The notes under the pieces are model-generated. The model saw only the letters and a list, made by a program, of their open reading frames with translations, made no database searches and was not told the origin of the DNA. DNA of 64,000 nucleotides. It comes from Escherichia coli. GTDB taxonomy: Bacteria > Pseudomonadota > Gammaproteobacteria > Enterobacterales > Enterobacteriaceae. The stretch lies in NCBI RefSeq assembly GCF_002854065.1, contig NZ_CP024147.1; one strand, 5' to 3'. A program made the position numbers and the translations under genes. This document shows, piece after piece, positions 45,750-47,473 of the stretch; within the stretch, counting starts at the first letter, position 1, and each line of letters starts with the position of its first letter.

Positions 45750-47072
45750 TTACTTAATACCGTATTCTCGGCTTAACCGACCGTGCAACCTCAACACATT
45801 GGTTTCAACTGCCGTCACCACGTTCTCTGGAAAATCTGTCGGTAATGAAGTCTTCACGTTATCCAGTGCTGCCGGAATCATTCTGGCAAAGTCACTCAGG
45901 ATTTCATGCATCTGCACTTCCGGGAATCTCAGCACCTTTGCTGTCGCCAAAAAATGTCGCGGATAAATTTTATCGATTGCCGTTTTTTTGCCTTTGGATG
46001 CGTTAAGCCCCATTGCCAGTTTGAGATCGCTGATGTGTATTCCCGCGCCACCCAATACCGGAAATGCTGAAATGATGTCGTAAAATGGCGTGAGTCGATA
46101 ACTGCCGCCAGCCTGAATAAATACGGAGAAGTTTTTTGCATGGCCATCCGTTGCGCCAATCAACCACTGAAAGACCTGGAATTTCATAAAATCATAGCGA
46201 TCTTTCAGCGCCTCGCTGGACCCCATCAAAAAAGCCATGATCCGCGCGATGCCTGGGCCTCCATCTGATTCATATTTCACCGATGAAGGTAAACCGAATG
46301 TCTGACACATATCCTCCTGTGGCAAGCGAAGTAAAACCGTTCGCTCAGCATTCCAACGCCTGTCAAAACGTTCGACCGCTAACGCGCGCACATTTCCCGC
46401 TTTAATGATTTCTGCGTCCGGAACATTCAACCCAAGTTCTTTCGCCAGCAGCAGACAGTAATACTCATTATCAACGCTTTGGCTGAGATCGAGCGTCGCA
46501 TTGGGCTGCCTGATTTCCCCAATCGGTAATTTAATGATGTGCGTCGTCGGCGTTATTCCTTTCGGAATGCACCAGTCATTGCCTATTCTGAGCAGTGCTG
46601 TCTTCTCCTGTGCGCCAGCAACCGAGATGCGAAAGTCATTTTCTTCTCTAATCATGCCTAGCGGGATATCTGCTTTATAAGCCGTTAATACTTCTTCAAG
46701 TCTGGCTTCAGTAAGCTTTTCCCATGCCATTATCGGACGCGTTACGGTTTCGTCTTCGGGTATTAACGTCACGGCACCAACGCTGTCTCGCCCTATTTCT
46801 GACAATAAATCAAACGGTTGTCTGGATTTGGCATGATAACGTTTAACGATCCGGTCACGTACAATCGGGCTATCGGGTAACAAGTTATCGAAGAAGTTAA
46901 ATACGGCATCAGAGGTGATATTCCCCCTCTGCAATGGCAGCGAAAGTGACAACGGTCTGGCATAACGGCTGGCTAACCACTCCGGTGCATACTTAAAGGT
47001 GTGCGCGCCGTTGGCTAACTTCGTTAACTCGCCTACCCGCTGGTTGTTCATCCAAGTGACAAGTTTAGGCAT
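45750..47072 (-). CDS. hipA: HipA serine/threonine kinase toxin (persistence)
   Basis: Start taken at MPKLVTWMNNQRVGELTK (440 aa). Residues G22, D291 and catalytic D309 are wild type by my count. Confidence 0.9.
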   Translation of the reverse strand: MPKLVTWMNNQRVGELTKLANGAHTFKYAPEWLASRYARPLSLSLPLQRGNITSDAVFNFFDNLLPDSPIVRDRIVKRYHAKSRQPFDLLSEIGRDSVGAVTLIPEDETVTRPIMAWEKLTEARLEEVLTAYKADIPLGMIREENDFRISVAGAQEKTALLRIGNDWCIPKGITPTTHIIKLPIGEIRQPNATLDLSQSVDNEYYCLLLAKELGLNVPDAEIIKAGNVRALAVERFDRRWNAERTVLLRLPQEDMCQTFGLPSSVKYESDGGPGIARIMAFLMGSSEALKDRYDFMKFQVFQWLIGATDGHAKNFSVFIQAGGSYRLTPFYDIISAFPVLGGAGIHISDLKLAMGLNASKGKKTAIDKIYPRHFLATAKVLRFPEVQMHEILSDFARMIPAALDNVKTSLPTDFPENVVTAVETNVLRLHGRLSREYGIK

Positions 47073-47338
47073 TACCACTCCAGATCTTGCTGTTCTGTTG
47101 ATTCTGGCGAGGCATTTTTCGTGTCGCATAGTGTCATTGAGAGTTCAAGCGACTGTAAAATCTTAAAAAATGTCGTGAGCGTGGTATTGTCAGGGTTGTT
47201 TTCGAAATTGGAAATCGTCGCCTGCTTAATGCCGATTTTTTTCGCCAGCTCGCTCTGCGTCCAGCCATTTTGCTGGCGAACCAGTTTCATTGCATTCGCT
47301 AATTGCGTTGGGCTATAGATCTTCTGAAAGCTCATCAT
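47072..47338 (-). CDS. hipB: HipB antitoxin / HTH repressor
   Basis: Start taken at MMSFQKIYSPTQ (88 aa); stop overlaps the hipA start. Confidence 0.9.
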   Translation of the reverse strand: MMSFQKIYSPTQLANAMKLVRQQNGWTQSELAKKIGIKQATISNFENNPDNTTLTTFFKILQSLELSMTLCDTKNASPESTEQQDLEW

Positions 47339-47359
47339 GTCATACGTCCACAGCAAATT

Positions 47360-47473
47360 TATCCGCTTAAGGGGATATTATCAGTTTTATCCTTTAGTGA
47401 GGATAAAGTCAATCTGGAAACAGATCTTATCCGCTCTACGGGATAAACGCTGCGATATCCGCGATCGCGGATA
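47360..47473 (-). promoter_or_regulatory. hipBA operator region: four TATCC-N8-GGATA palindromes
   Basis: tatccgcttaaggggata (47360..47377), tatcctttagtgaggata (47388..47405), tatccgctctacgggata (47428..47445), tatccgcgatcgcggata (47456..47473). Confidence 0.7.

Follow-up and report, generated by a model that had tools for sequence, protein, structure and literature searches.

The sequence, operators, structures and mechanism of hipBA, the founding locus of persistence, are all in the literature. The accounts in PMC8262856 and PMC10627512 describe the family mechanism through operator repression, Lon, GltX, RelA and Ser150. By analogy with these accounts, HipB dimers, alone or as HipA2HipB2, would bind four TATCC-N8-GGATA operators and so repress the operon; HipB would neutralise HipA, and Lon would degrade HipB through its C-terminal 16-residue tail. 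Free HipA would phosphorylate the glutamyl-tRNA synthetase GltX at Ser239, with a rise in uncharged tRNA-Glu that would activate RelA, raise (p)ppGpp and lead to dormancy and multidrug tolerance, and phosphorylation of its own Ser150 would switch HipA off. The C-terminal tail directs Lon degradation of HipB, whose half-life is ~17 min via the degron, and W88 of the tail docks on HipA (PMC3376134). The mutant alleles hipA7 (G22S + D291A) and P86L concern the same gene at the same locus: G22 and D291 are the positions changed in hipA7 (PMC3376134), P86 is a high-persistence position (PMC11767524), and both the autophosphorylation site S150 and the role of loop 151-156 have been described (PMC10627512).

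We analysed a stretch of E. coli DNA of 64,000 nucleotides (assembly GCF_002854065.1, contig NZ_CP024147.1), referred to as a whole as the window. We are highly confident that it carries a canonical chromosomal type II toxin-antitoxin operon hipBA, intact and in its ancestral terminus position beside dif, and that the IS1 pair around it represents independent insertions. The locus resembles hipBA of K-12 MG1655 (b1507/b1508) in gene order, protein lengths (440/88 aa), one-base gene overlap and four operators, in its neighbours (dif, yde fimbrial genes, yneO and lsrK) and in residues 22, 86, 88, 150, 291, 309 and 332. It differs from it by four HipA and two HipB substitutions, by ~1.5-2% nucleotide divergence, by an extra T between operators O3 and O2 and a GATAAT between O2 and O1 (both found in other sampled E. 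coli), and by IS1 insertions at either end of the 14-kb segment in which it lies. The features of the operon and its immediate surroundings are as follows.

45639-45666, minus strand: predicted dif, the 28-bp XerCD chromosome dimer resolution site; exact match to GGTGCGCATAATGTATATTATGTTAAAT (28/28), 0 expected by chance
45750-47072, minus strand: hipA, 440 codons plus stop; Ser/Thr kinase toxin of 440 aa
47072-47338, minus strand: hipB, 88 codons plus stop; HTH antitoxin and autorepressor of 88 aa
47360-47377, minus strand: predicted operator O1, nearest hipB; coding strand TATCCCCTTAAGCGGATA, exact match, same as in K-12
47377-47412, minus strand: promoter-like hexamers interleaved with the operators, TTGACT at 47407-47412 and GATAAT at 47377-47382
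47388-47405, minus strand: predicted operator O2; TATCCTCACTAAAGGATA, exact match, invariant in 6 strains
47428-47445, minus strand: predicted operator O3; TATCCCGTAGAGCGGATA, exact match, invariant in 6 strains
47456-47473, minus strand: predicted operator O4; TATCCGCGATCGCGGATA, exact match, invariant in 6 strains

Base 47072 is common to the TAA stop of hipB and the ATG of hipA (TAATG), and hipB lies upstream of hipA, an order and overlap as expected for an antitoxin gene. The mechanical list of open reading frames gives a 459-aa frame at hipA, which is an extension to an upstream in-frame ATG inside hipB; the 440-aa start is preferred because the K-12 and PDB alignments run from 1-440 to 1-440. 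Matches to the PDB HipA chains 2wiu, 3dnt and 3tpd reach E ~1e-296 across residues 1-440, and those of HipB to chains 5k98_B and 2wiu_B reach E ~1e-54. Domain assignment agrees, with Couple_hipA at HipA residues 6-103 (E 2.5e-27) and HipA_C at residues 149-401 (E 1e-51), both far above the curated Pfam cut-offs, and with a Cro-like HTH domain in HipB (HTH_3, E 4.9e-15).

An ungapped comparison with MG1655 (HipA NP_416024; locus L001) leaves HipA identical at 436 of 440 residues (99.1%), the only differences being H112R, T343A, S424T and S439I. HipB is identical at 86 of 88; its two differences, A73T and N85D, both fall within the C-terminal tail (residues 73-88), where W88 is retained. HipA G22, P86, D88, S150, K181, D291, D309, H311, N314 and D332 are all as in MG1655, and so is the Gly-rich loop 151-156 when the 440 residues are compared without gaps. 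Position D88 we take to be a further high-persistence position (D88N). D309 and D332 are reported to be catalytic residues (Correia et al. 2006). None of the high-persister changes (G22S + D291A, or P86L, D88N) is present in the window, which has G22, D291, P86 and D88. Since every known high-persistence position (22, 291, 86, 88) is wild-type, ordinary, low persister frequencies are expected. Given its non-mutant G22, D291 and P86, the allele is not predicted to confer high persistence (PMC3376134; PMC11767524), and at 99.1% identity to the characterised protein (PMC8262856) its HipA would phosphorylate GltX at Ser239 and arrest growth.

An earlier note on this DNA had read residues 22, 291 and 309 of HipA as being in wild-type form and hipB as overlapping hipA by one base; alignment to K-12 finds all three residues unchanged, and the overlap is indeed base 47072. 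Its description of the whole module as wild-type holds at the named positions and does not extend to the proteins as such, which are not K-12-identical (four HipA and two HipB substitutions). The same note had placed four operator palindromes before hipB, and exact matching recovers every one of them.

Operators were searched for by exact matching of TATCCNNNNNNNNGGATA (TATCC-N8-GGATA) across the window. The search returned five sites, a number reached by none of 100 shuffles, and four of them lie upstream of hipB within 114 bp (47360-47473), with 0.07 expected per window. All four equal their K-12 counterparts base for base, and eight of eight half-sites are invariant in an alignment of six diverse strains. 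We identify these palindromes from their sequence and position as the hipBA operator array, to which HipB is predicted to bind. The isolated fifth site, at 60357-60374, lies far from hipBA inside an ORF (59923-61515) colinear with K-12 lsrK and is most likely a chance match.

The TTGACT and GATAAT hexamers form a candidate promoter. Their spacing, taking TATAAT or GATAAT as the second element, is 23-24 nt, and a scan with the sigma-70 consensus returned no canonical promoter at hipBA, either in the window or in K-12. Relative to K-12, GATAAT replaces TATAAT, and an extra T is found at 47406, just after TTGACT. Both of these changes are present in EC958 (ST131), HB37 and ECO_2_R, 2014C-3050 shares GATAAT, and the K-12 form of the promoter region is the less common one among the six strains aligned. 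We had considered whether the promoter polymorphisms are unusual and rejected the idea, as they are common to other sampled E. coli strains.

That the allele is functionally altered, with persistence above or below that of K-12 through its HipA/HipB substitutions or promoter polymorphisms, is unlikely in our judgement. Both HipB changes do fall in residues 73-88, the region controlling Lon degradation (PMC3376134), and the T inserted beside TTGACT and the change from TATAAT to GATAAT do touch the candidate promoter; against this, no known high-persistence or catalytic position has changed, the promoter variant is shared with the ST131 strain and others named above, the exact HipA protein occurs in 1,248 blocks of a public assembly collection, and unrelated strains share the exact HipB (WP_001296726.1). 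Two RefSeq E. coli genomes carry the 1,724-bp hipBA stretch with 100% identity under the annotation hipA/hipB, and it has matches in 5,412 of 5,426 complete E. coli genomes. The source allele is a common natural allele.

The dif site, overlooked in the earlier note, belongs to the IS1-bracketed block and follows the hipA stop codon at a distance of 83 nt. Its neighbours are the same as in K-12, and hipA has been described as adjacent to dif (PMC5638614); dif beside hipA is the normal E. coli arrangement. Its prediction rests on core sequence together with terminus position. The plus-strand GC skew changes to negative near dif, starting at about 44-46 kb, and since an exact dif stands 83 nt from hipA, the window spans the replication terminus. 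A different arrangement is found in genome H1 (L002), where tandem filamentous-prophage genes (Zot, replication endonuclease, secretin) occupy the place in which dif and fimbrial genes normally flank hipA.

Colinearity with MG1655 extends across the window from pqqL to lsrA, with four interruptions: two IS1 copies, a deletion state of the fimbrial genes, and a TnAs1 element. The fimbrial operon (43783-45543) is in a deletion state unlike that of K-12, which leaves an usher shortened to 363 aa and a chaperone truncated at the 5' end. In the fimbrial region (ydeQRST) between ydeR and dif, at 43783-45629, the remaining 363 aa of the usher, its N-terminal part, are fused to the 3' end of ydeS. This degenerate state is common to genome L014 (GCA_900449015.1), and the full operon with an 883-aa usher is found in L007, L009 and L016. 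The mobile elements are listed here.

37530-38297, minus strand: IS1 copy 1, 768 bp, in the last codons of ydeO; 9-bp duplication GTGTTGTCC at 37521-37529 and 38298-38306
52454-53221, minus strand: IS1 copy 2, 768 bp, interrupting a yneO/ECSE_1600-type autotransporter gene; 9-bp duplication AACCGTCCC at 52445-52453 and 53222-53230
53840-59479: TnAs1 (Tn3 family), 5,640 bp, with 38-bp inverted repeats and a TGTATT duplication

Self-BLAST of the window returned one repeat pair, 37528-38297 and 52452-53221, of 770 nt, 100% identical and in the same orientation. Each member is an IS1 of 768 bp with the ends GGTAATGACTCC...GGCAGCATCACC and a 9-bp target duplication of its own. In RefSeq genomes, matches of both copies bear the annotation IS1A/IS1B transposase, and an IS1 copy of L007 that is 99% identical carries Zn_ribbon_InsA and DDE_Tnp_IS1 domains. 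The two copies stand 14.9 kb apart and bracket a 14.2-kb native segment with ydeO, safA, ydeP, ydeQ, ydeR, fimbrial remnants, dif, hipA, hipB and most of the autotransporter gene. The earlier placement of an intact hipBA between two IS1 copies is thus borne out by self-BLAST and by the coordinates.

Several side observations concern the insertion sites. The ORF of ydeO (38276-39037), an acid-resistance regulator gene, now reads into IS1 copy 1, which replaces its last few codons, the total still being 253 aa, and strains 6EVA and LR-33 apparently have an IS1 at or very near this ydeO site. IS1 copy 2 divides the large autotransporter gene (47549-53746, yneO/ECSE_1600 family), the neighbour of hipB; the gene is intact in L013, L014 and L016, encoding 1,806 aa, and other IS1 insertions or deletions affect it in H1 and L007, which suggests that the gene is a recurrent IS1 target. 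TnAs1, with a G+C of ~0.6, separates lsrK from the 5' end of the autotransporter gene and encodes a transposase (56480-59446, plus strand) and a PAS-HAMP-MCP chemoreceptor (54029-55606, minus strand), and for matching copies RefSeq also annotates a recombinase family protein. It is absent from K-12 and L014, and 335 complete E. coli genomes cover at least 80% of it, in chromosomal as well as plasmid locations.

IS1 is able to form composite transposons. Two 100% identical copies in direct orientation, 14.9 kb apart and bracketing DNA in the manner of Tn9-type elements, would fit such a unit, which would have brought hipBA in and could move as a whole; we nonetheless regard this origin as highly improbable. 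Each IS1 has a duplication of its own (GTGTTGTCC on the left, AACCGTCCC on the right), with none flanking the whole unit. The segment and both of its outer flanks are colinear with K-12, and the DNA between the copies is, unlike that of a Tn9-type element, native and holds dif, a landmark of the terminus. The sister genome L014 is colinear with the window over 21 kb at 99.95-100% identity, and its dif-hipBA is identical at all 1,901 bases. It has the same segment but lacks both IS1 insertions: at their places GTGTTGTCC and AACCGTCCC each occur as a single copy, the empty sites of IS1 copies 1 and 2, and the TnAs1 site is likewise empty and single-copy. These empty sites indicate that three mobile elements have recently entered the source lineage. 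A composite-transposon origin is thus refuted by the separate duplications, the K-12 colinearity and the empty L014 sites. Separate 9-bp duplications, K-12 gene order and empty sites in the sister genome lead us instead to the reading that IS1 entered a native locus twice, recently and by independent simple insertions.

An IS1 pair of this kind also bears on stability. Homologous recombination between the copies could, mechanically, delete the segment, and such an event would remove ydeO, safA, ydeP, ydeQ, ydeR, dif, hipA, hipB and most of the autotransporter gene. The earlier note had raised the possibility that the locus is unstable for this reason; its argument drew solely on the direct repeats, and the native gene order, the presence of dif and the empty L014 sites argue otherwise. 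We consider it improbable that IS1-IS1 recombination frequently deletes hipBA in the source lineage. The 768 bp of perfect direct homology would provide the substrate, and IS1-associated deletions are known in this region, one next to an IS1 in L007 that runs from ydeQ to yddA, and another in H1, which has lost the 5' part of the autotransporter gene next to an IS1. Natural degradation of hipBA is also seen: the dif-hipBA stretch has matches in 5,421 of 5,426 complete E. coli genomes and is at least 80% covered in 4,564, the remaining ~16% with less than 80% coverage (O157:H7, for example) having a degraded hipBA, which makes the module dispensable. However, the natural hipBA losses that were sampled are internal deletions, with matches still starting at the dif-proximal end of the query (rows H98-H103), and the intact target duplications in the window indicate that no IS1-IS1 exchange has taken place so far. 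A second genome, L007, in which IS1 came independently to flank dif-hipBA on both sides, has kept the block. We also built a synthetic deletion joint, in which IS1 connects the left flank of copy 1 to the right flank of copy 2, and required a coverage of at least 80%; it was found in 0 of 5,426 complete E. coli genomes, a weak test given that the exact IS1 pair is absent from that collection.

The deletion would, moreover, take dif, hipA and hipB, the gene of the labile antitoxin, together, and both losses are documented as costly (PMC5638614; PMC3376134). As the block contains dif, its deletion would cost dimer resolution, and dif mutants include ~15% focus-less (abnormal) cells (PMC5638614). 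Loss of hipAB near dif frees HipA and leads to growth arrest (PMC5638614), and an IS1-IS1 deletant would keep its HipA protein, with neither dif nor a hipB gene to replace the labile antitoxin. Strains deleted for hipBA or for dif are viable in the laboratory (PMC5638614), so that such a deletion would be costly, not lethal. We infer that IS1-IS1 deletions of this segment are selected against rather than frequent.

These considerations allow us to speculate that hipBA acts as a terminus guard, in that IS1-IS1 deletants losing dif and hipB would be arrested by HipA and outcompeted, and the module would thereby stabilise dif; we hold this as possible though doubtful. Like plasmid post-segregational killing modules, hipBA pairs a stable toxin with a labile antitoxin, and loss of dif/hipBA results in HipA arrest (PMC5638614). 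Unlike plasmid addiction modules, it sits on the chromosome, in the terminus; the arrest it causes can be reversed, and delta-hipBA strains remain viable.

For annotation, the source allele should not be taken for a high-persister of the hipA7 type. As the IS1 pair brackets dif, studies of IS1 deletions at this locus must weigh a Dif-minus phenotype and the release of HipA, beyond persistence. If true, a guarding role at the terminus would extend the published HipA arrest of terminus-less cells (PMC5638614) and would not amount to a new kind of system.
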